A stretch of DNA of 64,000 nucleotides from Methanobacteriota archaeon (GCA_020697715.1 JAEHCO010000001.1:480001-544000); one strand, 5' to 3'; counted from the stretch's first letter, positions 21,969 through 63,503 are shown. Notes: a model not told the origin generated them from the letters alone. Made by a program: numbers and translations.

Positions 21969-24900
21969 ATGGGAAGTGGAAGTGAAACAATTATGCCAAG
22001 CAATGCAAAGAAGGGTATATCGATAATTCTGGTTTTTTTATTAGTGATGTCTACTTTTGCAGGACTTTTGCCACTCGTATCCAATAATGTGAGCGCCATT
22101 ACATTGGTGGTGGATCCCAGTACTGGGTTTGATTACGATACTATCCAAGCGGCGATAGATGTGGCCAATAATGGAGATATTATCTTTGTGAAGAGCAATG
22201 GTGACACCCCCTATGATGAGATCTTGACAGTGGACAAGAGCGTCACGATCATCGGTGAGAATCCATTGAACACGACGGTTGCTGGTGATGGCTCTGACGC
22301 TGTGATCACTATTCAGGCAGGCATAAATAATGTGAATATCTCCGGACTTAGAATATGCCATTATGGTACTCATGGAGGTAATGGAGGTATATCTATCTTC
22401 CAGGCTGAAAATGTCACCATAGAAAATTGTATAATAAACAATACGAATAGTGGAATATACCCATATCAATCCTCATGGGTCACAATTGAGAACAATACAA
22501 TATCAGACTGTGATTATGGTCTATATTGTCTAGAATCAGATTACCTCGCTATTAGTAGGAATGATATATCAGATAATGGTGAGGGAATATACTTGAGTCT
22601 CGCCAGCCACACTGTGGTCAACTACAATATTATAGATAATAATCCCGATGGGATCATTCTGGCAGATCTTACCGACACCTTGTTCCAACTCAATCAAATA
22701 TCAAATAGCACAACTGGACTTGATCTACAATCTGGTGTATTTCAGGTATCTTCTACTTCTTTCCACCACAATAATTTCTTTGACAATACAAATGATGTGC
22801 TCAATGCCTTCAATAGTGACACTACTTGGTCAGACGGCTTTGAGGGCAATTTCTGGGATTCATATGCAGGGACAGATATGAATGGTGATGCTGTCGGAGA
22901 AACATCACATCCACTCGGCGCTACCAATGGAGCGTATGGGGATCAACACTCACTGGTCACACCAGCCACAACCCGTGTTAGGAATACAGAAACTGGAGAA
23001 GAATTCCTGTACATCCAGGAAGCGGTTGATGATGATGACACATTAACCGGACACACGATCCTTGTCACCAACTGGTCTGTCGAGCAATATCCGAATTGGA
23101 CGCATCATGAGAATGTGGATGTTCACAAGGGTGTGAATATCATAGGAGAGGACAGGGATACCACAATTGTCGACGGCTATGGTGCTGGCTCTGTCTTGAA
23201 ACTCACAGCAGATGGAGTGGATGTATCACAGCTCACTGTCCAGAATGCTGGCTCGGCAACAGATGAGGATGCCGGCATTTTGATAAATGCAGACCTGTGC
23301 AGTGTTCGGAATGTGACCAGTGTGTTCAATGCAGTGAATGGAATTGCAATATCATACAGCAATTACAGCACAATTGGGTACAACATAATTAGTAAAAATA
23401 TGAAGAACGGCATTCTTCTGGAATATTCTGAGAATTGCACGGTCATTGCCAATCAAGTACTGGACAATGTCTTGACCGGAATTTACTCTCATGATTGTTC
23501 TAATAATATCATAACTGGAAATCAGATCGAGGATGTCGATATGTGGTCGGAGCCAGTACAGGATGGATTGGTGGCCGAGTGGAGGATGGACGAAATCTTC
23601 TGGAATGGCACTACTGGAGAGGTTATAGACTCCTCTGGAAATGGACATGACGGCACATCATTAAATGGTACCAATACTACTTCTCTAGGCAAATATGGCC
23701 GTGCTGGAGAGTTCGATGGTGTGAATAATTCCATATTCGTACCTTATGACCCGGCTTTCAATGTGACAGAGTTTACCTTGGAAGCATGGATCAAACTTGA
23801 TAAAATAGGTATAAATCAGGAAATAATTTCCAGATCTGCAGATGGCGATCCAGAATGTTCAAATTATTGGCTCACTATTACTCCGGGTAATAATGTACAG
23901 CTATTCTATGAATATGGCACAGGATCTGATTGCAAGCTCACATCTATAACAACACTGGAAGTTGATAGGTGGTATCATGTTGTGGCCACTCAAAGTAATA
24001 AACTATCCCGAATTTATATAGATGGGCATTTTGATAATGAAAAATTACAACTAAGTGATCCTGAACCAACTGCGGACAGGGATATTTACATTGGTAGAAG
24101 GAATCCCCCCAGTCTTAATATGCTCAATGGCAGCATTGACGAGGTTCGAATATACAACCGAGCACTTGGTCAGTCCGAGGCCAAGTTAAATTATGGCATC
24201 AGTGGCTCTCAAGCTGGCCTTTTGATATCTGAGGATGATAATACAATAATAGACAACAATATTATCAGCTCAAACATCGGTTCCGGCATCATATCAAGAG
24301 GGTGCGATGGTCTCCTAATCAAGAACAACACAATAACTGAAAATATCAATTTAGACTCTGGTGAGCTCCCAATAGATGACGGACTGGTTGCACATTATAA
24401 GATGGATGAAGATTTTTCCAACATCGTGAACTATAATCCCGATACGATTAAAGACTCATCTGGCTATGGGAATCACGCAATTAATGTAGATGTTGATACA
24501 ACAATAGGGATATACAATGGAGCGGGAAATTTTGATGGCTTCGGCGATTATTTGATTGCTCCTGATTCATCCATCCTGGACCTTATTGACAATTTCACGG
24601 TGTCAGCGTGGATCAATGTGGACACATTCACCTGGTTGGGAGGTATAGTTGGCAAATACCAAAACTCTGGTGCGGATGGTTTCACTTTCCGTCTGAGTCC
24701 TACCGCTCCCTACAATACTATAAGTTTCTGCGGGTTTGAGGGATCCGTCACCCTTTCCACTGATACATGGTATTATGTTACTGGTGTGGTGGAGAATGGT
24801 GTATCATCAATTTACATCAATGGAATAAAGGACAGCTCTGGCCCGGCAGGTGACCTGCAAGCGAATGACAACGATGTGAGTATAGGCGCGGACTATCTTT

Positions 24901-27900
24901 CCACCCCCAGGTACTTTGACGGCAGAATTGACGAGGTCAGGATATATAATCGTGTTCTGGATGAAGCCGAGCTCCTCTTTAATTCCAATTGGATTGCGGC
25001 AGGTCTAGCGGTATCAGATAATCAGGGCTGCATAATAGATGGAAACAATATCTCTTCTAACAATGGTGACGGCATAAGGTCAATAGATAACAGTAATTGC
25101 TACATAACCAACAACACAGTTGATGATAATGGTGAGAATGGCATATATCTGGAAACATGTGATAATATAACCATCGCAGGTAATTCGGCCAGCTACAATG
25201 GTATAGATGGTATCTACATGTACGACCACAATGAATATTGCAATATAATTGACAATACATTGAACCACAATGGCTATGATAATCCTTTCGAAGTAGGCCG
25301 AGGTATTTGGCTAAGTTCATACTGTAATTACAATACCATAACAGGTAATACGGCCGATCATAATGAAATGGAGGGCATATTCCTGTATAATAACTGCGAC
25401 CATAATACGATCTCGTACAATACCTTTGACCATACCACTGCCCATCATGGCGTATACTTATACACATACAGCAATTATAATCTGATTACCAATAACTCTG
25501 CCAGATCTAATAATAAAGATGGAATAGTGGTAGAAACAGGATCAGATCATAACACCATTGTGGGTAACACAGTTGCCAAGAATGGTCACGTAGGTGTGAA
25601 TATGATTTCATCTAATTACAATCAGATCTATCACAATAATATAATGAACAACAATATTCAGGCAGCGGATGATACGGGAAATAATATCTGGAACTTACCA
25701 TACCCTGATGGTGGGAATTACTGGAGTGATTGGAACACACCAGATATGGACATGAATGGGTTCGTGGATATGCCATATGATGTTGGCAGTATACCTATCG
25801 GATCAGTATATTACGAATACTTCAGTGATGCTATCGGTCCAGAATGGTCAGTCTACAGTTCGACGACAGACGGTGTCAATGAGATCAACCCTGCCCCTAT
25901 TATGGCTAATGATGGTCCCGCATGGTCCCAGAGCTCATCGAGCGGTACTATGAACCTTAATGAATTGATATTACATGTCGATGTTGAATCTTTTGGATCA
26001 TTACAAGTTGAATTCACGTGCTATGTTGGAGAAGTTCCTTATCCCATGCCAGATAGCTTCACGGACCATTCCAATAGTGATGGTATCGCAGTTAGTAATG
26101 ATGGTGTCAATTGGTACAAAGCATGGTCACCTACAACAGCCGGATTTTATGATTCAAAAACAGCATTCCTTGGAGCTATCCCTGGTTTTTCACCAGACGG
26201 TGATGTTTACATCAAGTTCCAGCGATATGGATCCTCCAATTTCCCTAATGGTAAGGAATGGGATACTATCAGTCTAACATCGGATAATAGTATATCCAAG
26301 CTGATAGAGGATAAATATCCCTTTGCTAATATGAATGGATGGTCAGAGATGGCCAATTGGAAATTAAATCAGGTTGGCGGTCAGGATGTGCCTGATAGCA
26401 GTGTGAGCGGCAATGATGGAACACTGGGTGCTGATGATGCAGTTGCTTCTGACGATCCCGTATGGCTTATAGGAATATCAGGCACTGCCTTGAAATTCGA
26501 TGGCGTGAACGATCTGGTGAATGTACCAAACACCATATCACCACCATACGAGATAACATTGGAAGCCTGGGTGAACCCAGCTGTGAATAATGTATCCCTT
26601 CCAGATCAGATGATCATCTGCAAAGAGGATGTATCCACAAACAGTAAGGCATGGAGTCTATCTTTGAATGGCACAGCGGCACTCGGTGTCAATACGACCG
26701 TTGGCGAGTCCATTGTCAGATCCACGACACTATTGGACATCAATACCTGGTATCACATCATCGGAACCTATGATGGAAGTAAATTGAGCATCTATGTGAA
26801 TGGAATTCTCGAGAATTCCATTCCCCATTCTGGAGATCTCAATACAGACATTCTCGAGACCTCTATAGGTCATCTACCGGGCGCTTCAGGCATGGATAGC
26901 TACTTCAGTGGCACGATAGATGAAGCCAGAATTCTCAATAAGGCTTTGACATGCTCCGAGGTAGGAACACGATATGATTCCTTTGTAGGCATGATGGAAT
27001 CATCCTGGCCAATGTTCCAGCACGATGTGGAGCACACTGGTCTTAGCCCGGTAAATACCAGTCACATTGACGGTACCGTGCTGTGGAGCTACAGCACAGG
27101 AGGCGATGTTTATTCTTCACCTTCTATTGCTGTTGATGGCACTATCTATTTCGGATCTTATGATGACAAGATATATGCATTGGATCCAGATGGCACAATG
27201 AAATGGGATTTCGATACTGGATTTGATGTACATTCGACCCCAGTTATTGGCGTAGAGGGCTCCCTGTATTTTGGTGCTGGTGATACATTCTACGGTGTAT
27301 TATCGGATGGAGTTGAGAAATGGAATTACCCTGCTGGTGGTACTATATGGACATCTCCAGCTCTGGGGAAGGATGGCACTCTTTATTTTGGAACGGATTC
27401 CAGTGACTTGATCGCTCTTCTTCCAGATGGTGTTGAGAAATGGACCTACCCAGCCAGTGGAACCATACGCAGTTCGCCAACCATTGACGAAGATGGTAAT
27501 ATCTACTTTGGAGCTGGTACCACACTCACCTCACTTGATCCAGATGGCGCATTGAATTGGGCTTATTCGGCAGGTAATACGGTCAGTGGTTCACCCACAA
27601 TTGATGAAGATGGTAGGATACTATTTGGCTCATGGAATAACAATTTATATTGCCTGAATCCGAATGGAACACTTCATTGGAGTTATACTGCAGGGGCCCA
27701 GATAGACAAATCTCCTGCTATTGGCCCTGATGGTGATATCTACTTCGGATCACGTGATAACAATCTCACCTGCCTCTATCCTAATGGGACATTCAATTGG
27801 AATTTCATGACTGGAAATTGGGTATATTCATCACCAGCTATTGGTAGTGATGGAACGATATACATTGGTTCAAATGACGATCATATCTACGCTCTGAACC

Positions 27901-29942
27901 CCAATGGCACCGAAAAATGGAGATACAATATCGGCAGTGATGTCACCTCTCCAGCTATTGGAGATGATGGAACCATATATGTCGGATCATCAAATGGCGA
28001 TCTATACGCTTTCGGAGAGGGAGCTGCACCTCAGATAATCAATGTTCAAGCCATGCCAGATCCTCAAGAATCTGGAGGCAGTGTGAGTATCCAGGCAGAT
28101 GTTACTGACAACTATGAGATGGGCGATGTCTGGATCAATATAACATATCCTGATTCATCATCTATCAATAGGACAATGTCTGCTGGAACATCCCCGGCCT
28201 TTTCCTACACTTCCAATTATATTGTTCCTGGAACATATGATTACACCATCGGATCTACGGATCATTTCTGCAATCTTGGCCTGAGTACTGGACATACCTT
28301 CGTGATTCAAGATACCACACCACCTGAATTTGAAGATGTAATGTCCATCCCTGAACTACAGGTCGCGGGCAATAGCATCAATGTGTCTGTGAATGTAACT
28401 GATATACATGCAGTTGGTGGAGCCTGGATCAATATCACTTATCCAGATGGAACATATGTGAATCAGACAATGACAATGGGAGACACTCCCGGATATTACC
28501 ACCACCCAGATACCAACTACACACTTGCTGGCACATATGCTTATTCTATATATGCGGAAGATGCCTCAGGTAATGGAAATATAAGTGATAATCACACTTT
28601 TTTCATATCCTCTGGAGAATGTGCATATATCGTGATGGGGGCCGCGACATCATCCGTGATAGCTGGCACATCATTTATTGTCAATGTAACGGCATTTGAT
28701 GAGTTTGACAATGTGGTCCTCGATTACAATGGCACCTTGGCCTTCACTAGCACGGACACACTCGCGGATCTTCCGACAGACTACATCTTTAACTCGACCG
28801 ATAATGGAACCGCAAGTTTCTCAGTGACCCTATACACAGCAGGTAGTGCGGACCTAACCGTTCTAAGTGGCACATACACAGATATGGCCACCTTCGATAT
28901 TGCTCCAGCAGGTCTGGCAACCCTCGTCATAACACCAGCGGTCTTTGTGATGTACGAGGCAAGTGGCCCGGCTGAGATCTACTCGGCCGCGGGTTATGAC
29001 CTCTACAATAATATTGTGTCATTCACACCCCAGTGGTCTGTTTCAACCGATGATATAGGTTCGATAGTGTCAAGCACCGGTGTCTTTGTACCTTCAAATA
29101 TAGTCAGCACAGGATATGTCATATGTACGGATCCGGTCTCTGGAGTTCAGGCCACAACGTCCGTATCTATCGTGGATTCCGTATCTCCAGTGATAGTCGG
29201 AATAGCAGATATCGAATTGTTCAATTGGGAGACAGCCAATCTTTCCGCATACCAATGCTATGATAATGTCTCAACTCTGCTGACATATATCTGGGAAATT
29301 GATGTGATCGGAAATCTAACAGATATGAATATCACTGCGATCATGGATGTTCCAGGCATCTATAATGTGACATTGTGGGTGATGGATGGATCAGAAAACT
29401 ATGCTAAGCGCTCATTCAATATAACTATCCTGATGGACACGGATGAAGATTCAATAGCAGACACCGAAGATGATGACATTGACGGTGACGGTTTGTCAAA
29501 TGTCTGGGAAACCGATAATGGTCTGGATCCATACAATGCGGCTGACGCATCTTCAGATCCAGATAGCGATGGCCTGACCAATATCCAGGAGTTTGACCTA
29601 GGAACCGATCCAGCTAATGCAGATACTGATGGTGATGGCTACTCTGATGGAGATGAAATTGCAAATGGTAAAGATCCATTGGACCCACATGATCATGATC
29701 CACCATACATGTTGTACGGTCTGCTGATTGTGATACTTATCATCATAGCGATAATTTCCGCGATATACATCCCGAAAAAATTAAAGGCCAAGGCAGCTGC
29801 GAAGGAGACGGAGATCGTTAACAGGACGGAGGAGAAGGATCTATTGGAGACTGTTCCGAAGGAGCCAGTAGCTCCTCCGATGGATGATGTTCCTGAGATC
29901 GCCGAGACAGCGAGGCCGGATGACTGGAAACCTCCTGAATAG
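21969..29942 (+). CDS. Giant surface protein: NosD/right-handed beta-helix, 3 LamG domains, PQQ-like beta-propeller, Ig/PKD, Ca-binding DxDxDG repeats, TM anchor
   Basis: Signal peptide, TIQAAID, GNFWDSY and GGNYWSD. LamG motifs (GLVAEW..DE, FDG, WYHV, GSIDEVRIYNRAL), SSPAIG.DGTIY.GS repeats, DTDGDG, C-terminal TM. Confidence 0.88.
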   Translation: MGSGSETIMPSNAKKGISIILVFLLVMSTFAGLLPLVSNNVSAITLVVDPSTGFDYDTIQAAIDVANNGDIIFVKSNGDTPYDEILTVDKSVTIIGENPLNTTVAGDGSDAVITIQAGINNVNISGLRICHYGTHGGNGGISIFQAENVTIENCIINNTNSGIYPYQSSWVTIENNTISDCDYGLYCLESDYLAISRNDISDNGEGIYLSLASHTVVNYNIIDNNPDGIILADLTDTLFQLNQISNSTTGLDLQSGVFQVSSTSFHHNNFFDNTNDVLNAFNSDTTWSDGFEGNFWDSYAGTDMNGDAVGETSHPLGATNGAYGDQHSLVTPATTRVRNTETGEEFLYIQEAVDDDDTLTGHTILVTNWSVEQYPNWTHHENVDVHKGVNIIGEDRDTTIVDGYGAGSVLKLTADGVDVSQLTVQNAGSATDEDAGILINADLCSVRNVTSVFNAVNGIAISYSNYSTIGYNIISKNMKNGILLEYSENCTVIANQVLDNVLTGIYSHDCSNNIITGNQIEDVDMWSEPVQDGLVAEWRMDEIFWNGTTGEVIDSSGNGHDGTSLNGTNTTSLGKYGRAGEFDGVNNSIFVPYDPAFNVTEFTLEAWIKLDKIGINQEIISRSADGDPECSNYWLTITPGNNVQLFYEYGTGSDCKLTSITTLEVDRWYHVVATQSNKLSRIYIDGHFDNEKLQLSDPEPTADRDIYIGRRNPPSLNMLNGSIDEVRIYNRALGQSEAKLNYGISGSQAGLLISEDDNTIIDNNIISSNIGSGIISRGCDGLLIKNNTITENINLDSGELPIDDGLVAHYKMDEDFSNIVNYNPDTIKDSSGYGNHAINVDVDTTIGIYNGAGNFDGFGDYLIAPDSSILDLIDNFTVSAWINVDTFTWLGGIVGKYQNSGADGFTFRLSPTAPYNTISFCGFEGSVTLSTDTWYYVTGVVENGVSSIYINGIKDSSGPAGDLQANDNDVSIGADYLSTPRYFDGRIDEVRIYNRVLDEAELLFNSNWIAAGLAVSDNQGCIIDGNNISSNNGDGIRSIDNSNCYITNNTVDDNGENGIYLETCDNITIAGNSASYNGIDGIYMYDHNEYCNIIDNTLNHNGYDNPFEVGRGIWLSSYCNYNTITGNTADHNEMEGIFLYNNCDHNTISYNTFDHTTAHHGVYLYTYSNYNLITNNSARSNNKDGIVVETGSDHNTIVGNTVAKNGHVGVNMISSNYNQIYHNNIMNNNIQAADDTGNNIWNLPYPDGGNYWSDWNTPDMDMNGFVDMPYDVGSIPIGSVYYEYFSDAIGPEWSVYSSTTDGVNEINPAPIMANDGPAWSQSSSSGTMNLNELILHVDVESFGSLQVEFTCYVGEVPYPMPDSFTDHSNSDGIAVSNDGVNWYKAWSPTTAGFYDSKTAFLGAIPGFSPDGDVYIKFQRYGSSNFPNGKEWDTISLTSDNSISKLIEDKYPFANMNGWSEMANWKLNQVGGQDVPDSSVSGNDGTLGADDAVASDDPVWLIGISGTALKFDGVNDLVNVPNTISPPYEITLEAWVNPAVNNVSLPDQMIICKEDVSTNSKAWSLSLNGTAALGVNTTVGESIVRSTTLLDINTWYHIIGTYDGSKLSIYVNGILENSIPHSGDLNTDILETSIGHLPGASGMDSYFSGTIDEARILNKALTCSEVGTRYDSFVGMMESSWPMFQHDVEHTGLSPVNTSHIDGTVLWSYSTGGDVYSSPSIAVDGTIYFGSYDDKIYALDPDGTMKWDFDTGFDVHSTPVIGVEGSLYFGAGDTFYGVLSDGVEKWNYPAGGTIWTSPALGKDGTLYFGTDSSDLIALLPDGVEKWTYPASGTIRSSPTIDEDGNIYFGAGTTLTSLDPDGALNWAYSAGNTVSGSPTIDEDGRILFGSWNNNLYCLNPNGTLHWSYTAGAQIDKSPAIGPDGDIYFGSRDNNLTCLYPNGTFNWNFMTGNWVYSSPAIGSDGTIYIGSNDDHIYALNPNGTEKWRYNIGSDVTSPAIGDDGTIYVGSSNGDLYAFGEGAAPQIINVQAMPDPQESGGSVSIQADVTDNYEMGDVWINITYPDSSSINRTMSAGTSPAFSYTSNYIVPGTYDYTIGSTDHFCNLGLSTGHTFVIQDTTPPEFEDVMSIPELQVAGNSINVSVNVTDIHAVGGAWINITYPDGTYVNQTMTMGDTPGYYHHPDTNYTLAGTYAYSIYAEDASGNGNISDNHTFFISSGECAYIVMGAATSSVIAGTSFIVNVTAFDEFDNVVLDYNGTLAFTSTDTLADLPTDYIFNSTDNGTASFSVTLYTAGSADLTVLSGTYTDMATFDIAPAGLATLVITPAVFVMYEASGPAEIYSAAGYDLYNNIVSFTPQWSVSTDDIGSIVSSTGVFVPSNIVSTGYVICTDPVSGVQATTSVSIVDSVSPVIVGIADIELFNWETANLSAYQCYDNVSTLLTYIWEIDVIGNLTDMNITAIMDVPGIYNVTLWVMDGSENYAKRSFNITILMDTDEDSIADTEDDDIDGDGLSNVWETDNGLDPYNAADASSDPDSDGLTNIQEFDLGTDPANADTDGDGYSDGDEIANGKDPLDPHDHDPPYMLYGLLIVILIIIAIISAIYIPKKLKAKAAAKETEIVNRTEEKDLLETVPKEPVAPPMDDVPEIAETARPDDWKPPE

Positions 29943-51078: not shown

Positions 51079-54000
51079 TCACTCAGATGTGAGGTCTTCT
51101 ACTGAGACATCGCCTGGTTCTTCCGATGAAACATCGGCCTCGGGCTCCGGGGCTGCTTCAGCTTCAGGAGCTGGTGCTTCTTCAACAGCTGGTTCTGGAG
51201 CAGGGGTCTCTTCGACTGGTGGTTCTTCCGGTGCTGGAACCTCGTCCTCAGGCTTCTTTCCCTTCATCATCGCCTGAAGTACGATTATGACGACCAGTAT
51301 TATGATGATAATGATCCACATGAAATCATTTCCACCATCACCATCTTCTGCATCATCTACTGGATCTCCTGCTGGTGTATCATCATCCACATCCAAGACC
51401 CCGTCACCATCATCATCCAAGTCCTCAGTAAGGTTGGTCGTCGAGTCTTCTGCTGTGTAACCCGGGTTCCAAGTATCTGGCTGTCCGTCACCATCTGTGT
51501 CCACAGATGCTGCTGGATCATTTGGGAAGGCATCATCTATGTCATCAACACCATCACCATCTGTATCATCTTCTGTTGGAACCGGTACTGGTGTTGTGTC
51601 TATAGCTGTTTGGAAACTATCTGTGTATGTTGTTCCCATTAAATTGCCTGCTATATCCATCGCACTCGCACCCACTGTGAAGTTGTATATACTATCATGC
51701 TCCAACTCTACGAATGAGATAGTGACATATCTGTCTGATAGATCCCAAACAAAACCACTCACATTCGCCCCATCAATGTCAAAAGCTTCCTGAACAGACA
51801 TCCTGTCCATCTCTTCTGTGAATACGATGATGAGATCCCAACCGAGTGGAACGTCCTCCATTGCCTCTCCTGGGGCGACCACAAGCACATCTGGTGGTGT
51901 CATATCAACAATATCGATCCATGTGACCAATTTTCCAATGTTCCCGGCCGCATCCCATGCTGTAATGGTCAAGGTAAAGTTGCCAATGTTCGTAAACGTG
52001 TAGTTCACAATTTCACCTGTTAACATGACATCATTTGCCCCGTCATTGAATGACCATTCATAGCCAATGATACCCACATTGTCGATACTTGCAGAAGCAT
52101 CCAGGGTCACTAATGAACCTTGTGCCATTGTCAGTCCACCTCCAATAATTGTCGGCGGTGTCACATCATTAACGGTTACGGTAAATGTACCAGTCGCACT
52201 GTTTCCTGCCTCATCCAATATTGTGAGAGTGACGACATAAACACCCGGTTCGGTAAAGACATATGATGGCGCTTCTCCGTATAATGTTTGCACGGTATCA
52301 TTCATGAATGTCCAGGTATAGTTCACAATACCCACATTGTCAGTGCAGCCAGCTCCATTGAATGATACTACAGTATCCTCATCCACAATTTGATCCGGAC
52401 CTGCAACGGCGATCGGTGGCGTCACATCAAGAACGACTATGCTGACCATGGCTGTGTCCGTGAATCCCTCATAATCGGTCACTGTCAATGTCACATTGTA
52501 TGTACCAGGCTCTGTGAATATATAGGTCGGGTTGACCCCATACAACTCCATGGTCTGATTATCAAATATGAAGTCCCATGTCCAGTTTATTATCCAGAAC
52601 ACGTCATCAGTGGAACCAGATCCGTCAAAGGTCACGACCGTATCTTCATCCACTGTTTGGTCAGATCCTGCATCTGCTGTTGGGGGTCCAGTTACATAAT
52701 CCAGTATAATGATGATGTCTTTGGACATATCTATGGTAGACACCACATTGCCACTGGATGCTCCCTTTGATGCGCTAATGGTGTGTGGTGTGTACATGGT
52801 TATGGAATTGTTCAGCTGGAAATATTCCTGTCCGATTATCCAATGCACATATCCGTCCATTCCTGTGACTCCAGATGCTACAAGCACTCCATTGATATCA
52901 CGAACCTCGACCATTGAATTTGGTAATCCACGCCCTGTTCCCTGCTGCTCGGCCTTGACATGCATATACCACTGCACAGTTAGAGCTGAGGAATTTCCGG
53001 GCACTATGGTAACACCATTAGCACATGCCATCCAGTAAATGACTGGAGTGATAGTGATAGTGCCGTTGTCACCGCAATCCATCAATCCAGATACATCAGT
53101 TCCTGAAGTGCCGGCAGTCACATTGGTTATGCTCGTGGTCGGGCGCTGGGTTCCGGACATGATGGTAAAGGCAGTTCCGTTCCATGTACATGTTGCTGCT
53201 AAGAAACCGGTCAATGGCACTGCCTGCAATGCGGTTTGGATTATTGCTGCCACATCGTCCATCGTGGTGGCCGTGGTGAAATCAATACCTGCGAGGTTCC
53301 AAAGTGAACCGTCCATCGAGATGGTAAAGCTTCCATCATTCGTGGAGTTCCAGTTGAGTACATCCCCGTCAGCCGCAGTTCCACCGGTCAGTGTTGCCGA
53401 GTATGATGATTCCACATTACCAGATATATCTGTTCCATTGGCTCCACTGTGTGAAGTTGCTGCTGTGATAGCGGATGGTCTTCCTACGGTTCCAGATGTT
53501 ATGACAAAGCCCATTCCATCCCAAATACAGGTGGCATTGGTGAATCCGCCGCTTCCTACGGCCTGCAATCCATTCTCAATGACATCGGCCACGTCATTCA
53601 TTGTCACTATTCCGGAGAAATCAAGTCCATCTATATCTGCGAAGACACCATCAATTCCTATCCTGAATGAACCATTGGATACACCCTGCCAGGCAGGTTG
53701 GAATCCTTCGGCCATGTCTCCGATCAGGCTTGCTGGGCTTCCCTCAACACTCACCTTGTTCTTGTTAAATACCGTGTCCAAGGCCGTTACATTGGAGCAA
53801 GCGATCAAATTCAGTTCGAACTCCGCATCTGGATTGTCGAAGAAGCTGCTCTCCAGGTCAACGATAGTATTCATAGTGAACAATCCACTACCAACACTTG
53901 GAAGGTCTCCGTTCCAGTTACCGCCATTGTCGTAAACCTGTACATTCTCTATTGAGCCAGTGGCATCCAGTACCCCGTTCAGGCTGACCAGGTATATGCC

Positions 54001-57000
54001 GTGCCAGTTATTGCTATAGATGTTACAATCCGAGATATCAACATCCCCGTCCATCACAGCCTCGATATAAATTCCGGCTCCGCGGTTGTCATAGACATCG
54101 ACACCCGAGATGTCAATATCCATGGTATTGGCCAGAAGAGTGATCCCGTTTCCGTTCATCTCATCCCCGCCACCGCACCAGTTACCGTATAGGGCTCCTG
54201 CCACTGTGCCGCCGGTCATATCAAGTTCAAGAATGTTCTGGGCATTGATCTTCAAGGCACTCGCCTTTCCACCAGGTCCAAAGACATTATCATTCATGGT
54301 CGCGAATACATTCTGGGTCAGGGAGGCACCACTGCACCATTCCCCGATCCTGACACCGAAATCGTATATCTCATCTTCATCGTAAATCTCATCCCATATT
54401 CCCTGGACGATATTGTTGTTCATCTCAAGAGTTATATTATTCTGAGATGCTATCTTGATACCGCCTCCAGCATCTGCATCTTTCTGGAAATCCGCGATTA
54501 TTGTATTATCTGATATCCTGGCAAATATGTTATCAGCATAAGCAGACCCACCAGAAGCACCGATGGTGATGGCTCCTTCAAGCGATGCATCATTTGAGAA
54601 GATGGCAATGTGATTGTATCTTATGTCATTGCCAATGATATCAGTATATATGTCACCATTTCCAATTATGCTGATGATGCCGCCACCAGTTGGCCCGCCT
54701 CCGCCCAGGATATTGATCAATATTGTATTGTCCAGAAGGTCAGCACTGACATTTCCTGGCGTGCCCCAATCATTACCAATGGATATCAAGGTTCCAGTAT
54801 CAATGTCCAAAGATGCTACCATCTCCGTGTACTCGAAATAATTGTTGGATATTGTGGTATTGAGGAAATCATAGATATCCAGGTTCACAAAGGAGCACCC
54901 GTCCTCATCCATTATATTTTCCACAATGAACTCATTGTCTGTTACAATAACATCTCCAGTATCGGCATTGACACCAAGTAATCCCTCTGAGCCGATCCGT
55001 CCATTTCCATAATACTTGTTCATTGAGAAGAACACATCGGCATTGTCATTACTTTCAAGAATAAATACAGAATATAATTCTGGGAAGTCGGTACCCAGAG
55101 ATACAATCTCAATATCATTCCCAGTTATGATCGCGGTAAGGTCACCATTATCTGCATCTACATCAAACACTTCTCTGAGCTCGTTCACTTTTGATAGAAT
55201 GTGATTATCCATGATCGTGATATTTATGTCTATACTCGCATCAATATTGAATATACGGTCAATACAGTAACCGACCCCGTATGTTATGATATTGTTTCCA
55301 GAGAGATCTAAGGTCATGTTACCAGCATCTGCATCAAATTCTATGAAATCATTTTTATTTTCGTACATGTACGTGGTGGTCACAGTATCTGTCATCACTA
55401 TTGTGTTTTGACTAAAGGATGCGGCCATATTGTTATCGGCATAGAATTCAAATCCATCGAACATATACCTTTGGATATTGATATCATTGTTCTCAAATGC
55501 CAAGGTCATATTATCAGATTCCACATCGAACAAATGCGCTCCGTGTAAGGCAATGTCAACATCATTGTCTATGAAGGTGAAATCCATATCTCCGTTATCG
55601 GCATAGATCTCGAAGACGGGTTTCCAATCCTGTGTATAATCATCCACATGATAATCATCTATCAGATCTCCATTGATGTAGATATCATTCCCCTCAAATC
55701 CAAGGTCCATGTTCTGATCGAATGACTCAATGTAGAATAATGAAGTATATACCCAGGCATCGGTGATCGTGATATTATTATTGATCAGATCCAAGGTAAT
55801 ATTCTCATTGGCCGTTACATAGAACACCCACCTGTCATTATCCCTACAATAATCGTCACTTCCGATGATTATGTCATTGTTCTCTATAGTGGCGGTGATA
55901 TTTCCATCAGAGTATAACTCAAATGTTCTCCTGTGGTATTCGTCTACAATTATCGGTAGATAATTGTTTTTAATAATGGCATTAAGATTGTTGGAGCATT
56001 CGAAGTTGAAAGCAGATCCCTCATATGAGTATGGGAATGAACCTACATCGAACTCGATATAATTGTCCATGATGATCACATTGATATCCTCACAATTCCT
56101 GATACAGAATGAATCCCACATATCGGGATCGTTTGTAAATGATATGGCATTCCTTATGAAGTTGGCATTGATGGTGTCTGCATCTTCAAAGAAGAAAGCC
56201 TCTTTAAGATGATCGCTGTATATGTAGATGAAGCAATCAGCTATAGTGACATCCAAGACATCATTCGCAGTTATATACAATCCCTCATGAACTTCGTTGC
56301 AATAAACGTCCACCATGGTATTCTCAAAGGTTATGCTTGCATTTTCATTCCCACTGAACCAGAATATATGATATAATGAATCAAATTCCCCACCAATTGT
56401 ACAATCAATGAACAATGCATTCATGTCTCCACCAGCACTACCAAGAACTATTGCGTCCATATAGCTACCATCGATATCACAGTATATCTCATTCTCCTGG
56501 AAATTGAGGTTAACATCAGCATTATCAGACTCAAATGAGAATATTCCATCATTGTTGCCGGAAGTATCTGACTCGTCATTAACAATGTTGTTTAAGAAGT
56601 CAAAGTTCAATGTTTCTCCAGCTTCTATTTCGAAGACCGAACCAGAGGATATTTCCTCATGATTTATATCAAAGGAGTTATCGGTCATGGTCACATTCAT
56701 AAAATCATCTGCATACATGTAAATGAGATACCATAGGACCATCCAGCTTTTATCCCCATTGCAATCCATGACATTATCAACAAAATTCAATTCAATATTG
56801 CCATTGGAACGCATATACAGGTTCTCGGCCCAGCCAAAGCCATCTGAACCACTGAAATAATTGCCCGTCATATCGATGTCCAATAGGTTCCGGGCTCCGA
56901 AATTCTCGATCATCGTTCCAGTAGATTTATCTCCATTCCCGATAATGACATTGTCAGTGAAGGTCAGTGTGGTGTTGGCTGAGGTTGGTGAATCCCACGG

Positions 57001-58923
57001 CCCATACATTCCAATGGAAATCACACCACCATCGTAAACACCCCAGTTCTCCACTATGGTGTTCCTCTCCATGGTGACCATAAGCTCTCCATCGTTCGTG
57101 TCAATGTATAAAGCCGCCGCAGGCATATTACCAGGTCTGGGTTGGAAAGGCCAGTCACATAGGTCTGCATCGTTGCCCCATATCTCACAGTCTGAGATGG
57201 TGGCATAAACCAAGTTCGGTGCGTGAATGAACATCCCATGCCCACCAAATGAAGTGTTGACATTATCCAGGTCACATACTATTTGATCTGTTGCTCTTAA
57301 GAATACACCAGAGTAGTATGAGTTAGTTAAGGTCGAATCATAGATGGTTGCATCAATGGTGTTTGCTGTAATGATCTCAACACCGTGCTCACCGTTATCA
57401 TCAGCATTTATATCGTGCAGATCGATCACGACATCCTGAACCGCGATCACAATGCCAGAGCCAGTATTACTGAAGAACATATTATCCGCTATCATGCCGT
57501 TCACGACATAGTTGGGATTGGTCATGTTTCCCACACCAAGGCCGAACCCAGCGTTTCCAGCTATCATATTGTTGGCCAAAGTTGCGGGGAAGCAGCTGTC
57601 GAATATCAGACCGTTGTAGTTGTCGAATATCATGGAGTTCTGTATGGCCACACTGTTGGATTGAATATAAATTCCAGTGTTGCTCATGTAAACTGGATCT
57701 TCAACCACATTGGCCGCTCCATCCATCCACCAATGGACTGGAGGTGTTGTTATCAAACCAAAGAGATTGTCACAATCCATATCGAAGCTTATATCAGTCC
57801 CTGGCCCGGGTGTCACGTAGGTCATTGTCGGAGCCGCGCTGATCATTCCAGATGTGATGATGAAGTTGGTCCCTGTCCAAATGCAGGTCGCACCTGTGAA
57901 CCCTGGGGCAACAATGGTCTGTATTGCTGCTTGAATGAGGGCTGCCACTGCAGGCATATCGGCAGCTAGCGTGAAATTTATTGGGCCAATGGTCTGTGTG
58001 AAACCTTCGAACCCTATTGTGAAGTTCCCATCGGTGATGGTCTGCCAATTGGCAATGTTACTTTCGGCACCCACTCCTCCTGTCAAGACTGCAGCGAAGG
58101 TGGATGGAATCATACCTGAGATATCAGTTCCAACTGCACCACTATGTGTGACCAGAGCACTGACTGAAGATTCCATATAGTTGAGTGAAATATCGCTTCC
58201 AGATGTTATAGTAAAAGAATTTCCAGTCCATGCTACTTGAGCCGCTGCGAACCCTCCGGTTCCAATGACTCGTATCGCAGTCTGGATCCTGCCCCTAACA
58301 TCGTTCATGCTGCCCACTCCTGTGAAGTCTATGGGTCCAATGTCCGAGTAAACACCATCTATTGTGACTCCGAAGGTACCATTCGTGATAGCCTCCCATA
58401 TTAGATAGTCAGGCTCGGCATCAGTGTCACCCCACAATCTTCCGTTCGTTGTACTGAGGTAACCCATATTCTCGATCTTACTGTTCTGGATATCCACGAC
58501 CGCGTTCGGTCTGATCCATAAATTTGCCTCGTCATTCGTGTCATTGGTTGTGATTACAGAAGCATCGGTATCAAAGATCTCCGTGGGCATAAAACCGTCG
58601 CCCCCATCCTGCATTATGAGTGTTCCACCATCTTCCACTTCAATGTGAAACTGGCCAGGGAATGAGCAGTTCATCAATATCGTCGTATTGACGAGTGTCA
58701 GGGTCTCACCTGCTGGTATTGTCAGGTTACCTGTCAAATATATGGTCTCATTCTCAAAATAGTCATCAGGTGTGGTTACAACCCAATCACCCTCAATGAA
58801 CTGATCCCCATTTGTTATGTCATCTGGCGGTGGAGGTGCTGTGGCTCCTGAAACCACCATGTTCATGAACACTACACTCATCATTGCTAGCGATAATATT
58901 ATTGCGTATACCTTCCTCATCAT
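51079..58923 (-). CDS. Giant surface protein: long acidic beta-helix, four DUF3383-like modules, 3 PKD domains, Big_5-like Ig domain, TSP3-like repeats, TM anchor
   Basis: Signal peptide; PTADAGSDQTV..FDGSGSTD (PKD); FTEEMD; DTDGDGVDD..DAFPNDP; WIIIIIILVVIIV then an acidic Pro-rich tail. Confidence 0.87.
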   Translation of the reverse strand: MMRKVYAIILSLAMMSVVFMNMVVSGATAPPPPDDITNGDQFIEGDWVVTTPDDYFENETIYLTGNLTIPAGETLTLVNTTILMNCSFPGQFHIEVEDGGTLIMQDGGDGFMPTEIFDTDASVITTNDTNDEANLWIRPNAVVDIQNSKIENMGYLSTTNGRLWGDTDAEPDYLIWEAITNGTFGVTIDGVYSDIGPIDFTGVGSMNDVRGRIQTAIRVIGTGGFAAAQVAWTGNSFTITSGSDISLNYMESSVSALVTHSGAVGTDISGMIPSTFAAVLTGGVGAESNIANWQTITDGNFTIGFEGFTQTIGPINFTLAADMPAVAALIQAAIQTIVAPGFTGATCIWTGTNFIITSGMISAAPTMTYVTPGPGTDISFDMDCDNLFGLITTPPVHWWMDGAANVVEDPVYMSNTGIYIQSNSVAIQNSMIFDNYNGLIFDSCFPATLANNMIAGNAGFGLGVGNMTNPNYVVNGMIADNMFFSNTGSGIVIAVQDVVIDLHDINADDNGEHGVEIITANTIDATIYDSTLTNSYYSGVFLRATDQIVCDLDNVNTSFGGHGMFIHAPNLVYATISDCEIWGNDADLCDWPFQPRPGNMPAAALYIDTNDGELMVTMERNTIVENWGVYDGGVISIGMYGPWDSPTSANTTLTFTDNVIIGNGDKSTGTMIENFGARNLLDIDMTGNYFSGSDGFGWAENLYMRSNGNIELNFVDNVMDCNGDKSWMVLWYLIYMYADDFMNVTMTDNSFDINHEEISSGSVFEIEAGETLNFDFLNNIVNDESDTSGNNDGIFSFESDNADVNLNFQENEIYCDIDGSYMDAIVLGSAGGDMNALFIDCTIGGEFDSLYHIFWFSGNENASITFENTMVDVYCNEVHEGLYITANDVLDVTIADCFIYIYSDHLKEAFFFEDADTINANFIRNAISFTNDPDMWDSFCIRNCEDINVIIMDNYIEFDVGSFPYSYEGSAFNFECSNNLNAIIKNNYLPIIVDEYHRRTFELYSDGNITATIENNDIIIGSDDYCRDNDRWVFYVTANENITLDLINNNITITDAWVYTSLFYIESFDQNMDLGFEGNDIYINGDLIDDYHVDDYTQDWKPVFEIYADNGDMDFTFIDNDVDIALHGAHLFDVESDNMTLAFENNDINIQRYMFDGFEFYADNNMAASFSQNTIVMTDTVTTTYMYENKNDFIEFDADAGNMTLDLSGNNIITYGVGYCIDRIFNIDASIDINITIMDNHILSKVNELREVFDVDADNGDLTAIITGNDIEIVSLGTDFPELYSVFILESNDNADVFFSMNKYYGNGRIGSEGLLGVNADTGDVIVTDNEFIVENIMDEDGCSFVNLDIYDFLNTTISNNYFEYTEMVASLDIDTGTLISIGNDWGTPGNVSADLLDNTILINILGGGGPTGGGIISIIGNGDIYTDIIGNDIRYNHIAIFSNDASLEGAITIGASGGSAYADNIFARISDNTIIADFQKDADAGGGIKIASQNNITLEMNNNIVQGIWDEIYDEDEIYDFGVRIGEWCSGASLTQNVFATMNDNVFGPGGKASALKINAQNILELDMTGGTVAGALYGNWCGGGDEMNGNGITLLANTMDIDISGVDVYDNRGAGIYIEAVMDGDVDISDCNIYSNNWHGIYLVSLNGVLDATGSIENVQVYDNGGNWNGDLPSVGSGLFTMNTIVDLESSFFDNPDAEFELNLIACSNVTALDTVFNKNKVSVEGSPASLIGDMAEGFQPAWQGVSNGSFRIGIDGVFADIDGLDFSGIVTMNDVADVIENGLQAVGSGGFTNATCIWDGMGFVITSGTVGRPSAITAATSHSGANGTDISGNVESSYSATLTGGTAADGDVLNWNSTNDGSFTISMDGSLWNLAGIDFTTATTMDDVAAIIQTALQAVPLTGFLAATCTWNGTAFTIMSGTQRPTTSITNVTAGTSGTDVSGLMDCGDNGTITITPVIYWMACANGVTIVPGNSSALTVQWYMHVKAEQQGTGRGLPNSMVEVRDINGVLVASGVTGMDGYVHWIIGQEYFQLNNSITMYTPHTISASKGASSGNVVSTIDMSKDIIIILDYVTGPPTADAGSDQTVDEDTVVTFDGSGSTDDVFWIINWTWDFIFDNQTMELYGVNPTYIFTEPGTYNVTLTVTDYEGFTDTAMVSIVVLDVTPPIAVAGPDQIVDEDTVVSFNGAGCTDNVGIVNYTWTFMNDTVQTLYGEAPSYVFTEPGVYVVTLTILDEAGNSATGTFTVTVNDVTPPTIIGGGLTMAQGSLVTLDASASIDNVGIIGYEWSFNDGANDVMLTGEIVNYTFTNIGNFTLTITAWDAAGNIGKLVTWIDIVDMTPPDVLVVAPGEAMEDVPLGWDLIIVFTEEMDRMSVQEAFDIDGANVSGFVWDLSDRYVTISFVELEHDSIYNFTVGASAMDIAGNLMGTTYTDSFQTAIDTTPVPVPTEDDTDGDGVDDIDDAFPNDPAASVDTDGDGQPDTWNPGYTAEDSTTNLTEDLDDDGDGVLDVDDDTPAGDPVDDAEDGDGGNDFMWIIIIIILVVIIVLQAMMKGKKPEDEVPAPEEPPVEETPAPEPAVEEAPAPEAEAAPEPEADVSSEEPGDVSVEDLTSE

Positions 58924-58988
58924 AGTCAAACTCTCCTGTTTAATCTAATATTCTCTATAATACATAGGATAATATAGATATATAAATA

Positions 58989-59550: not shown

Positions 59551-59949
59551 CTATCTTCTTTTTATATTAAAAACATAACGCGTTGGCACACGCCTCTTCA
59601 TTCCTGTCCAATAAGTGCAGGTTGGACAGGTATGGCCCAATGTCACAGTCCCGCCAAACACAGTTTGATTCTTGGATTTTTTTAATTTGGAACCACACAC
59701 GGGGCAATTGGACAGGGGCTCTTTTTCCTGCTCCGTTTCCTTACAATGTACCTCCACCTGAGCAATGCCTGTATTGATGGCCAGTAATCTCATTCGAGTT
59801 CCGCCGACCTTGAAGTTCTCATTGTTCTGGTTCAGCTCCCTCTCAACCAGTTCCTTCAGCTTTTTCTGTGAGTTGACCACCTTGTACCTGGCCATCACAT
59901 CCCTTATGGCGATTATCACCTGATCGCTCTTGGGTATCCTGTACATCAA
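59551..59949 (-). CDS. Hypothetical zinc-ribbon protein
   Basis: CPVCGS...CPTCTYWTG; basic N-terminal domain. Confidence 0.75.
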   Translation of the reverse strand: MMYRIPKSDQVIIAIRDVMARYKVVNSQKKLKELVERELNQNNENFKVGGTRMRLLAINTGIAQVEVHCKETEQEKEPLSNCPVCGSKLKKSKNQTVFGGTVTLGHTCPTCTYWTGMKRRVPTRYVFNIKRR

Positions 59950-60344: not shown

Positions 60345-63300
60345 ATGGAAGACCCCCATCCAAAACAAATACAATTGATCGGTAGAGACGATGAACTGGA
60401 TCTATTGAAAGGAAATCTTGAAGATGTAATTGGTGGAAAAGGGTCAACGATCCTCATATCTGGTGAGGCTGGTATTGGCAAAACCAGACTTGTTGATGAA
60501 TTCCTTCTTCATGCTGTGGCCGAAGATATGAAGATACTGGCGGGATCCAGCTCTTCCGACACGATACATCCCTTTCTAACATTTTCCAAAGCCCTTGAAA
60601 AGGAAATTGACGATCCCTTGCTTCAAGATCAGGAATACAATTCATTTGCCGCTATTTTTGCCATAGACACATCTGGTATTATCATTGCCCAGGCATCGTC
60701 CACTGCCAATGACCTCGATGCGGATATATTTGCAGATATGCTTTCAGCAGTTCAAGATTTTATCAAGGATTCATTCGGTATCGCCAGTAAGCAAAGATCT
60801 GGATTGGGACGATTGGAATATGGCGATATGAAGATAATGATTGAACACGGCTCTCATTTACATCTCACTGCCGTGTTCAAGGGCAATGAACACCCGGACA
60901 TGAAGACATTGCTCAAAGCTGCTGTAAATTCTATAGAAGAAGGAAACGAAGAGATCCTTGAATCATGGTCTGGAAATACAGACAAAGTGCCTTGGATCCA
61001 GGAAAAAATATCATCACTGGCTGATGTCAAATTCCTCATACGGAGAGATCTGGAAGGCGTGAAGTTAGAAAATGAGAGGATCAGAATAGCTGATGAAGTA
61101 TTAGAACTCTTAAAATCGATATCTGGCAAAAGGCCCTTAATCCTCCTGCTGGAGGATCTCCATTGGGCAGATGAATCCTCATTATTTGTATTGAATTATC
61201 TTTCCCGGAATATCAAGGCAGAAAATATCATGATCGTGGGAACTCTTCGCCCCGAGAAGACCATCAGTCTTCAAACCACTCTGGAGAAGATGAGCCAAGA
61301 AGAGAATTTCCTACTCCTGCCTCTTATTCAACTTGGAAATACGTATGTATCATCTCTCGTAGAGGCTATGTATCCAGCCAATGAATTTCCAGAGAAATTC
61401 ATCAAACATCTATCCAGTGCCTGTGATGGCAACCCTTTCTTCGTTATCGAATTGCTCAGGCAGATGAAATTAGATGGAAATATCTCCACTAATGAAGGTA
61501 GCACCATACTCATTAGTCAGGATTATTCCATACCTGGTTCGGTAGATGAGATGATCCAAAGACGCTTGGAGAACCTTGACCCCGAATCCATGGCCCTTGC
61601 AGAGTACACCTCGTGCATTGGAAGGATGTTCGAGTCCAAGGCTGCAATGTCCATAAAGATAGCTCGTGATCCGGTCCAGGCACTTCAGAGATTGCAGGAT
61701 AGCGGGATCATCATCATAAATAATGGAACATCCGAATTTTGCCACGCGATCTTTCAAGATGTGATATACAAAGGCATTGGGAATAGATGGAAATCTTCCT
61801 ATCACAAACATCTTGGAGAATATTATGAAGAAGGATATGTGAATAGGACGGAAGAGGTTTTATATGATCTCGCCAAACATTTCTCCAGATCTAATGAATA
61901 TGAAAAAGGATTTGATTATTGTTATAAAGCTGGTGAGAAGGCGGAGAATATCTTTGCTTTGGAGCAAGCCATCAGCTTTTACAAAGATTCGCTCAACTCA
62001 CTCTTGAAGATCAGATCTATCGATGACCATGAAGGAAAAAGATTGGATCTTCTGGAAAGAATGGGTGGCATCAGTGCGATATCTGGGGATTATGATGGAT
62101 CATTAAGTATTTTCAACACCGCTTTGGAGATCGTGGATGACGATCAGAATAAGGCCAGGATATTGAGGAAGATCGGAGATGTTCATGTAAACAAAGGGGA
62201 ATTTGATGAGGCCTTGAAAATACTGTCAATGGCTAAAGAAGTGGTGGAAGAAGGAACAGCAGAATATGGCCGGATATTAATCAATGAGGCCAATCCTCAT
62301 TTAAGAAAGGGTGATTTTGACAAGGCTCTCCCACAACTTTCAGAGGCCATAGAGGTCTCGGAGAAAACTGGTGTGAGTCAGAAGGATATTGGCAATGCAT
62401 TAAGAGCCATTGGGAACATTCATTGGTACAAAGGAGATTATGACAATTCTCTCAAATTTTACAATAAGAGCCTTGAGATAATGGAAAATATAGGGGACAA
62501 GTATGGCATCGGATCCACATTGAATAATATTGGTAACGTGCACCATGCTATGAGCAATATGTCCAAGGCATTGGAGTATTTTGGGAGCTGCCTTGAGATA
62601 ATGGAAAAGATCGGGGGCAAACAGGGCATTGCCGCCGCCTTGAACAATATGGGCTTAGTGTATTACGAGATGGGGGAGCAGACCAAGTCTCTGGAGTTCT
62701 ACGAGCGCAGCCTGGATATAAAAGAAAAGATAGGGGATAAGCAGGGAACCGCACTCTCATTGAGCAATATTGGCAATGTGCATAATTTCACAGGCAATTT
62801 GCAAAAGGCACTGGAATTTTATGGGAATGGCCTTGGTATTATGGAATCAATAGGTGATAAATGGGGTATCGCGCTGTCCCTGAACAATGTCGGCAATGTG
62901 TATCATTCAATGGGCGATCTGTCCAAGTCTCTGGAGCTTTATGAGCAAAGTCTGGAAATAAGGGAAAGCATAGGGGACAAACACGGCATCGCCCGAGTGC
63001 TGATCAGATTAGGTAATGTTCATCATTCAATGGGCGATCTGGCCAAAGCTCTTGAATTCTATGAACGTAGTTTGAAGATATTTTTGGAAATTGGTGATAA
63101 GATAGAATCTATCTATCCATACTGTGGTCTTGCCGAGGTGTACATAGATCTCGGCAAGGCTCAACACTCTCTTGAAAATGCAGAGAAAGCTGTTGAGAAC
63201 TCCATAGAGACCATGTCACAACGTGAAGAGGGCAAGAGCCGCCGCATCCTTGGTATGGCTCATAGGGATCTGGGGAATTACAGTAAAGCGGAAGAGGAAT

Positions 63301-63503
63301 TTGAAAAAGCTAAGAACATTATGGACGAGATAGGATACAGAAGGGAGCTGGCCAAGCTCATCTATGAATACGCCTTACTGTACAAGATAAAAGATGAGCT
63401 AGATATAGCTCGCGAGTATGTGGAGCAAGCCCTATCTATGTTCGAAGAAATGGGCATGAGATTATGGGCGGAGAAGTGCCGTAAAGTTATGATCGTCCAG
63501 TGA
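60345..63503 (+). CDS. STAND-type AAA ATPase with inserted longin/roadblock-like domain and C-terminal 40-aa TPRs
   Basis: LIGRDDEL, GEAGIGKT, LLLEDLHWAD, GNPFFV.EL. TPR repeats (NIGNV...G...KALEFYERSL.I.E.IGDK). Confidence 0.88.
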   Translation: MEDPHPKQIQLIGRDDELDLLKGNLEDVIGGKGSTILISGEAGIGKTRLVDEFLLHAVAEDMKILAGSSSSDTIHPFLTFSKALEKEIDDPLLQDQEYNSFAAIFAIDTSGIIIAQASSTANDLDADIFADMLSAVQDFIKDSFGIASKQRSGLGRLEYGDMKIMIEHGSHLHLTAVFKGNEHPDMKTLLKAAVNSIEEGNEEILESWSGNTDKVPWIQEKISSLADVKFLIRRDLEGVKLENERIRIADEVLELLKSISGKRPLILLLEDLHWADESSLFVLNYLSRNIKAENIMIVGTLRPEKTISLQTTLEKMSQEENFLLLPLIQLGNTYVSSLVEAMYPANEFPEKFIKHLSSACDGNPFFVIELLRQMKLDGNISTNEGSTILISQDYSIPGSVDEMIQRRLENLDPESMALAEYTSCIGRMFESKAAMSIKIARDPVQALQRLQDSGIIIINNGTSEFCHAIFQDVIYKGIGNRWKSSYHKHLGEYYEEGYVNRTEEVLYDLAKHFSRSNEYEKGFDYCYKAGEKAENIFALEQAISFYKDSLNSLLKIRSIDDHEGKRLDLLERMGGISAISGDYDGSLSIFNTALEIVDDDQNKARILRKIGDVHVNKGEFDEALKILSMAKEVVEEGTAEYGRILINEANPHLRKGDFDKALPQLSEAIEVSEKTGVSQKDIGNALRAIGNIHWYKGDYDNSLKFYNKSLEIMENIGDKYGIGSTLNNIGNVHHAMSNMSKALEYFGSCLEIMEKIGGKQGIAAALNNMGLVYYEMGEQTKSLEFYERSLDIKEKIGDKQGTALSLSNIGNVHNFTGNLQKALEFYGNGLGIMESIGDKWGIALSLNNVGNVYHSMGDLSKSLELYEQSLEIRESIGDKHGIARVLIRLGNVHHSMGDLAKALEFYERSLKIFLEIGDKIESIYPYCGLAEVYIDLGKAQHSLENAEKAVENSIETMSQREEGKSRRILGMAHRDLGNYSKAEEEFEKAKNIMDEIGYRRELAKLIYEYALLYKIKDELDIAREYVEQALSMFEEMGMRLWAEKCRKVMIVQ

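Follow-up and report, generated by a model that had tools for sequence, protein, structure and literature searches.

The closest described relatives of the repeats reported here lie in phage tail sheaths. In the accessible parts of the respective papers, the insertion domain (InD) of the XM1 sheath is called ‘unique to phage XM1’, the corresponding domain of the Pa193 sheath is called ‘flexible’ by its authors, and neither is given a function. The similarity of the sheath InD to flagellar domains is already in print in the XM1 paper, and a 2017 paper (PMC5595980) has DUF3383 among the flagellin variable-region domains in its Table 1, with 24 cases. Here we describe four domains of this kind, termed modules 1 to 4, in a window of 64,000 nucleotides, the whole stretch of archaeal DNA that was analysed. 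They belong to a very large surface protein, anchored in the membrane, of an uncultured archaeon of the Thermoplasmata. We found no account of this archaeal family, or of the module in a cell-surface adhesin, in the papers searched. The domain, its sheath context and its flagellar likeness are already known; the archaeal adhesin-like recipient appears in none of these papers.

Four modules in a giant archaeal surface protein

The gene (Table 1) translates without internal stops, and its translation probably starts at the first Met (58923), since the database copy P0002 likewise has the resulting length of 2614 residues. The product is strongly acidic, with 398 Asp and Glu against 55 Lys and Arg over the 2616-residue frame. 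A hydrophobicity scan, rather than a dedicated signal-peptide or topology predictor, called the signal sequence and the membrane helix, and Pfam found three PKD domains and a Big_5 domain of the extracellular type. The signal peptide, PKD domains and membrane anchor described in the first-pass annotation are all present, and the signal-like N-terminus, Ig-like domains and C-terminal transmembrane helix together are those of a membrane-anchored archaeal surface protein. The acidic stalk resembles by eye the TSP3-type repeats, which are calcium-binding.

Table 1. Features of the surface-protein gene, in window coordinates
Feature	Position	Strand	Evidence
Whole gene	51079..58929	-	2616-aa ORF from TTG
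Signal-peptide-like N-terminus, aa 7-28 hydrophobic, then ‘GATAPPPP’	58840..58923	-	hydrophobicity scan
N-terminal β-helix coils, right-handed, as far as the insertion loop, aa 36-163	58441..58824	-	family alignment and model
Module 1 (N-site, first copy; InD-like), aa 164-274	58108..58440	-	PF11863 E 1.2e-7
Module 2 (N-site, second copy; InD-like), aa 279-387	57769..58095	-	PF11863 E 1.1e-12
Return linker after the N-site pair, aa 388-417, ‘WWMD’ motif	57679..57768	-	family alignment
Main β-helix rod, aa 418-1731	53737..57678	-	first ~120 residues modelled, remainder judged by family alignment and repeat character
Module 3 (C-site, first copy), aa 1732-1839	53413..53736	-	PF11863 E 2.8e-12
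Module 4 (C-site, second copy), aa 1844-1954	53068..53400	-	PF11863 E 6.5e-15; phrog_205
Conserved post-C-site segment, aa 1955-2075, ‘YWMAC...QWYMHVKAEQQGTG’, without Pfam family	52705..53067	-	
Three PKD domains, aa ~2082-2330	51940..52686	-	PKD_4 E 8.5e-44, 3 stretches
Big_5 Ig-like domain, aa 2342-2441	51607..51906	-	Pfam E 2e-7
Acidic stalk, DxDGDG-type repeats, aa 2442-2535	51325..51606	-	TSP3-like by eye; no Pfam hit
Predicted C-terminal transmembrane helix, aa ~2536-2555	51265..51324	-	hydrophobicity scan
Predicted short cytoplasmic tail, Pro/Glu/Ala-rich, aa 2556-2616	51082..51264	-	

The four repeats are ~108 residues long; repeats 2-4 share 38-44% identity with repeat 1, and 25 columns are invariant. 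They agree with the repeats and the consensus claimed in the first-pass annotation, with in-frame coordinates within 3 nt of its figures, the third of its ranges being one base out of frame. Against PF11863 (DUF3383), the whole protein gives four stretches (E 1.3e-40), each covering profile positions ~84-191 of 493. Each repeat also matches by itself; three of them exceed the family cut-off of 34.9 bits, and repeat 1 alone, at 31.5 bits, falls below it. In PHROGs only repeat 4 finds a match (phrog_205, tail sheath, E 8.8e-6), and repeats 1-3 give none. When the PDB sequences were searched with a four-repeat profile, every significant hit was a sheath, with four different sequences in all; the matches comprise XM1 gp6 (7kh1/7kjk, residues 100-199, E 5e-10), E217 gp31 (8env, 8fvg, residues 103-194) and Pa193 gp32 (9b42).

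A model of module 4 was predicted by AlphaFold2 from an alignment of 33 archaeal copies (pLDDT 72.9, pTM 0.69); it is only moderately confident, and the C-terminal ‘GTDISG’ region is poorly predicted. Structural similarity search with this model using Foldseek returned the same sheath chains (E 3.6e-5 to 1.3e-3, TMq 0.59-0.70), followed by matches at E > 0.1. Six matches at E ≤ 1e-3 were found in BFVD, three of which are named sheath proteins. The likeness to the XM1 gp6 InD and the Pa193 flexible domain extends over the whole domain, in both sequence and fold. The match to the outer insertion domain of DUF3383 sheaths, proposed in the first-pass annotation, is thus borne out by Pfam, by the PDB profile search and by Foldseek: every repeat finds PF11863, and the module 4 model finds sheath structures. 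Chance or low-complexity similarity is excluded by the E-values together with the fold match. The four repeats are homologous to the sheath InD; their fold is α/β and not Ig-like, with a Trp at module position 17 that is nearly invariant among the archaeal copies.

The host protein of these modules is not a sheath. Outside positions 84-191, DUF3383 matches nothing in the protein, nor anywhere else in the genome (2.12 Mb, 93.8% complete), which means that the N-terminal α-β-α sandwich and the conserved C-terminal domain of the sheath core (positions 1-83 and 192-493) are both missing; by comparison, the true sheath P0048 covers PF11863 positions 2-489. The neighbouring genes in the window encode an MFS protein, an RNR, a PCC-domain protein and an AAA/TPR protein, and PolD DP2 also lies within the window. 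As had been claimed, the eight other window ORFs scanned contain no viral gene, and no tail gene module (tube, baseplate, tape measure) surrounds the gene. We also considered a provirus fragment and reject this reading, since the genome lacks a sheath core and the gene has no viral neighbours in the window. Relatives from Thermoplasmata archaeon MAGs are named ‘PKD domain-containing protein’ or ‘DUF3383 family protein’ by NCBI. The latter label is misleading, because only positions ~84-191 of 493 are matched and the proteins are not sheaths, which it falsely implies of these archaeal genes.

Two other genes of the window are of note. A second giant surface protein (21969-29942, plus strand; 2657 aa) has Beta_helix/NosD, three Laminin_G_3, PQQ/β-propeller and PKD domains and TSP3 repeats, and the domain scan found no DUF3383 module in it. 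Divergent from the module-bearing gene and ~1.4 kb upstream lies a gene for a STAND-like, 1052-residue AAA_16 ATPase with a long TPR array (60345-63503, plus strand). Two small ORFs stand in between, and a 132-residue ORF immediately upstream of the surface-protein gene (59551-59949, minus strand) has no Pfam match.

Insertion sites and variation among relatives

The modules stand in tandem pairs at two sites, termed the N-site and the C-site, flanked by a right-handed parallel β-helix of the pectate-lyase-like fold; the Pfam Beta_helix family gives no hit in this protein itself. In the structure model, the N-terminal ~500 residues form one predicted right-handed β-helix that continues across the N-site, and the pair of modules 1 and 2 is predicted to loop out between two coils, as a plug-in into a loop of the host domain. 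The C-site lies between domains and is not a loop insertion. Alignment of the N-termini of 11 family members from eight genomes revealed that the N-site is empty in four of them, where a short loop (‘...NN-TNMPPDQWS-G...’) joins two conserved helix coils. The other seven are filled with one module (three members), two (three members, namely this protein, its orthologue and that of genome G020) or four (one member). The C-site, with the helix ending before it and a conserved ‘WWMDCA...QWYMHVKAEQQGTG’ segment after it, holds one or two modules in 11 of 12 members compared and none in the G020 protein. Relatives lacking the inserts, which the first-pass annotation had proposed to look for, therefore exist at the N-site, where the copy number is 0, 1, 2 or 4. 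Such empty sites occur only within the family: the β-helix core is confined to the nine module-bearing genomes plus one weak hit, and thus no orthologue simply without modules is found elsewhere.

A ‘W-x-D-C’-type linker follows the array at six of the seven filled N-sites, this protein having WWMDG and the G002 member YLDLA. The return linker is missing in relatives with an empty N-site, so that the duplicated cassette, judged from the alignment, may comprise the module or modules plus the linker. Across the family, most module arrays are trailed by a Cys-containing linker of the ‘W-W-(M/L)-D-C-A-x-N’ type; the corresponding stretches of this protein are WWMDG (57679-57768) and YWMAC (~52990-53067).

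Comparison with the same-genus orthologue in genome G006 (83% identical overall) gave dN/dS values of 0.128, 0.169 and 0.053 for modules 2, 3 and 4, respectively, and the modules are under purifying selection. Module 4 is the best conserved, with 97% identity. In the same comparison, dS is saturated (>1) over residues 36-387 (window 57769-58824) and amounts to 0.27-0.43 elsewhere; this saturation suggests that the gene is a mosaic that arose through recombination or conversion involving a paralogue. In an IQ-TREE phylogeny, modules 2 and 4 share one starred clade (100/92), so that module 2 groups with C-site modules, and the rows nearest to module 1 are also C-site modules, without support. 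This grouping of N-site with C-site modules fits the N-terminal mosaicism.

The genome has seven copies of the module: the four of this protein, two in a frame of 2083 residues and one in a frame of 1708 residues. The latter two paralogues adjoin each other ~40 kb past the window end (locus L023, G000:C11:576-588 kb). In G006, three paralogues in a row and the orthologue hold 11 modules in total. Within the order, the module occurs in nine of 22 genomes (three of four families, five of eight genera, four of seven high-quality genomes), always in open frames of 883-2621 residues. Its absence from the other 13 may partly reflect fragmented assemblies, which are 59-94% complete. None of 279 genomes sampled from the rest of the class has the module, and within the class as sampled, module and host family alike are restricted to one order. 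A contig scan with a four-repeat pattern confirmed one locus among 63 pattern matches, the pattern being too specific.

With the whole of PF11863 as query, two of 401 genomes sampled across the phylum were positive, namely this genome and G510. The latter, an archaeal bin of high GC content from the same phylum, has a myovirus-like cluster (locus L034, G510:C10:44000-63900, minus strand, at ~4.7-18.4 kb) that encodes a 393-residue DUF3383-type sheath core, Major_capside (PF09950), Baseplate_J, an E217_GP41-like hub and a Dit-like domain. Only profile positions 285-492 are matched in this sheath, which lacks the module. The cluster is possibly an archaeal provirus related to E217-like phages, or else a binning artefact.

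The wider module family

The four-repeat profile found 1311 cluster representatives, out of 1.84 billion, at E ≤ 1e-3, 506 of them at E ≤ 1e-10. The best 151 of the 1311 were grouped by their flanks with the modules masked, and one or two members per cluster (four for the tail tube) were scanned. The largest cluster comprises 52 fibre-like representatives of 540-920 residues, with one of two scanned hitting phrog_863 (tail category); a further 31 are true DUF3383 sheaths (two of two scanned), some with several tandem modules. Smaller clusters correspond to tail tubes (four representatives, with Phage_tube_2 in three of four scanned and phrog_290, minor tail, on P0070) and to DUF2793 fibre-like proteins (three representatives; the one scanned, P0028, has DUF2793 / phrog_7049, tail fiber protein). 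Twelve representatives form the archaeal surface-protein cluster, to which the present gene belongs. Two clusters of 16 and 9 representatives, cluster 3 (for example P0005) and cluster 5 (~1200 residues, no signal peptide), have no Pfam or PHROGs label, and two pairs and 20 singletons make up the rest. A crude hydrophobicity screen found transmembrane-like segments in ten of the 151 best representatives, all in the archaeal cluster. Some proteins are built mostly of tandem modules, such as P0005 (1130 aa, 11 copies), the true sheath P0026 (1090 aa, seven copies) and P0007 (698 aa).

A tblastn search against 50,697 phage records matched 18 of them at 35-43% identity, from phages of Vibrio, Burkholderia, Ralstonia, Aeromonas and one other, and the matched features, where annotated, are tail sheaths. 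The module is also present, at the level of sequence, in a flagellar protein: P0182, a metagenomic FliD of 926 residues with FliD_N and FliD_C, contains three tandem modules at residues ~498-781, after the best FliD_C match (residues 249-411). Overall, the module is a promiscuous exposed add-on, mostly viral among the hits, neither sheath-specific nor exclusively viral. The insertion domain, hitherto treated as an oddity of a few phages, appears here as a large mobile family that spans phage tails, a bacterial flagellar cap and archaeal cell-surface proteins.

Origin, possible roles and comparison with known systems

Phylogenetic analysis with viral homologues, as proposed in the first-pass annotation, clustered the archaeal copies but left the place of the sheaths divided. 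In a FastTree phylogeny of 199 instances, all 27 archaeal copies and three others form one clade (support 0.836), whose sister group (support 0.839) comprises 24 instances, 21 of them from sheaths. In the same tree, the module of P0093, a tail-tube protein, falls with the archaeal copies. The IQ-TREE analysis used 86 rows drawn from these instances plus three FliD copies (112 columns), keeping every archaeal, tube, P0018, P0040 and P0093 row and sampling the other groups at random. It placed 24 of the 27 archaeal copies with five copies of the unlabelled ~1200-residue family and the remaining three apart, with bootstrap not converged, and did not reproduce the sheath sister group of FastTree. 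The archaeal copies are strongly clustered in the tree (five label changes, where shuffling gives 23.2 on average), and a single archaeal clade is not rejected (p-AU 0.345); the data are compatible with a single acquisition by the archaeal order. Because the domain is so short (104-112 columns), phylogeny does not settle the donor. The donor may have been a tailed virus, or else a cell, given the module in a bacterial FliD.

The idea that a virion structural domain was co-opted for the cell surface therefore holds in part: the homology to the sheath InD and the cellular context stand, but the domain is not specific to sheaths and the trees disagree on its donor. Taken together, we consider it fairly probable that the module is a portable plug-in surface domain of the sheath-InD family, here part of a giant adhesin-like protein that is cellular and anchored in the membrane. 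It would have entered the order from outside and then been multiplied and shuffled among paralogues. With the same homology, the history might also be the opposite or a different one. In this form, the module would belong ancestrally to cellular surface filaments, to an outer-domain pool of flagellar caps and flagellins, with nothing viral co-opted; archaea would have taken it from bacteria, or phages and archaea would each have drawn on the pool. We regard this as rather doubtful. A narrower and quite unlikely version of the plug-in reading is that a decoration domain of a tailed virus was captured once by the ancestor of the order and today provides the giant β-helix adhesins of this lineage with their ligand-binding tips. 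If this were true, it would be a cross-domain capture from virus to host with a role in adsorption: viruses displaying the module would bind the same ligands, or the module homotypically, and the cell-surface copies could double as docking points or decoys.

As to function, the plug-in reading would have the PKD/Big_5/acidic stalk carry the protein and the helix serve as a rod, with one pair of modules towards the distal end and a second where rod and stalk meet; the N-site pair would be membrane-distal if the C-terminal helix is the anchor. The modules would be neither assembly nor catalytic parts but outward-facing contact points whose ligands could be, for example, polysaccharides, particles or other cells. 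We infer this adhesive role by analogy with other domains exposed as decoration on phage tails, capsids and flagella. As in the polymerising contact module of the first-pass annotation, the modules might instead self-associate, linking adjacent surface proteins laterally or one cell with another; the tandem arrangement at either end of a rigid rod, the three module-bearing paralogous proteins of one genome and the outer-domain dimerisation reported for some flagellar filaments (PMC8931119) could suggest this. Self-association is improbable: the accessible text on XM1 has its sheath polymerise via an N/C-terminal ‘handshake’ and the C-terminal domain, giving the InD no assembly contact, and that on Pa193 calls the domain ‘flexible’. 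A two-copy complex prediction of the module (score 0.00 against a mark of 0.42), made without controls, speaks neither way. That the modules take part in conflict between viruses and host, serving as decoys or receptor mimics through their likeness to a virion surface, seems very improbable indeed. The shared domain itself and the G510 cluster with its DUF3383-type sheath in an archaeal genome of the same phylum would speak for it, but that sheath lacks the module, and the scan of viral contigs for P0093 (11 pattern matches, none confirmed) found no module-bearing virus of this order. Moreover, module 4 is almost invariant between the two species, unlike an arms-race surface, and no known mechanism needs host mimicry of sheath decoration.

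For archaeal biology, the present work defines a lineage-restricted family of giant β-helix surface proteins with a variable number of modules. A cellular protein without an assembly role also offers a place to test what the module binds, which could explain why phage tails are decorated with it.

Ig-like, PKD and BIG decoration domains are reportedly common to phage virions and cell-surface proteins. Like them, the module is a small exposed domain, in-frame, often in tandem and common to viruses and cells; it differs from them in its α/β fold and in its recipient, an archaeal adhesin-like protein. Compared to right-handed β-helix surface proteins and enzymes, such as the AlgG/AlgE epimerases, NosD and phage tailspikes, the archaeal protein additionally carries the InD insertions. 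Another group for comparison consists of the outer domains of flagellar proteins in bacteria (D2/D3 of FliD and of flagellin); the FliD P0182 has the module in its sequence. PF11863 is a model of the whole sheath, which the archaeal repeats match above the cut-off (repeat 1 alone excepted) only at ~84-191 of 493. The closest counterparts are the XM1 gp6 InD (PDB 7KH1/7KJK) and the equivalent ‘flexible domain’ of Pa193 gp32 (residues 91-210), which belong to the same family as the archaeal modules, together with residues 103-194 of E217 gp31 (8ENV/8FVG), a range matched by sequence and not by the domain names of that paper. Compared to the sheath InD, the archaeal modules stand in tandem pairs at two sites and have a near-invariant Trp17. 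In contrast to the XM1, Pa193 and E217 sheaths, the archaeal host lacks the sheath core and is a membrane-anchored β-helix/PKD surface protein.
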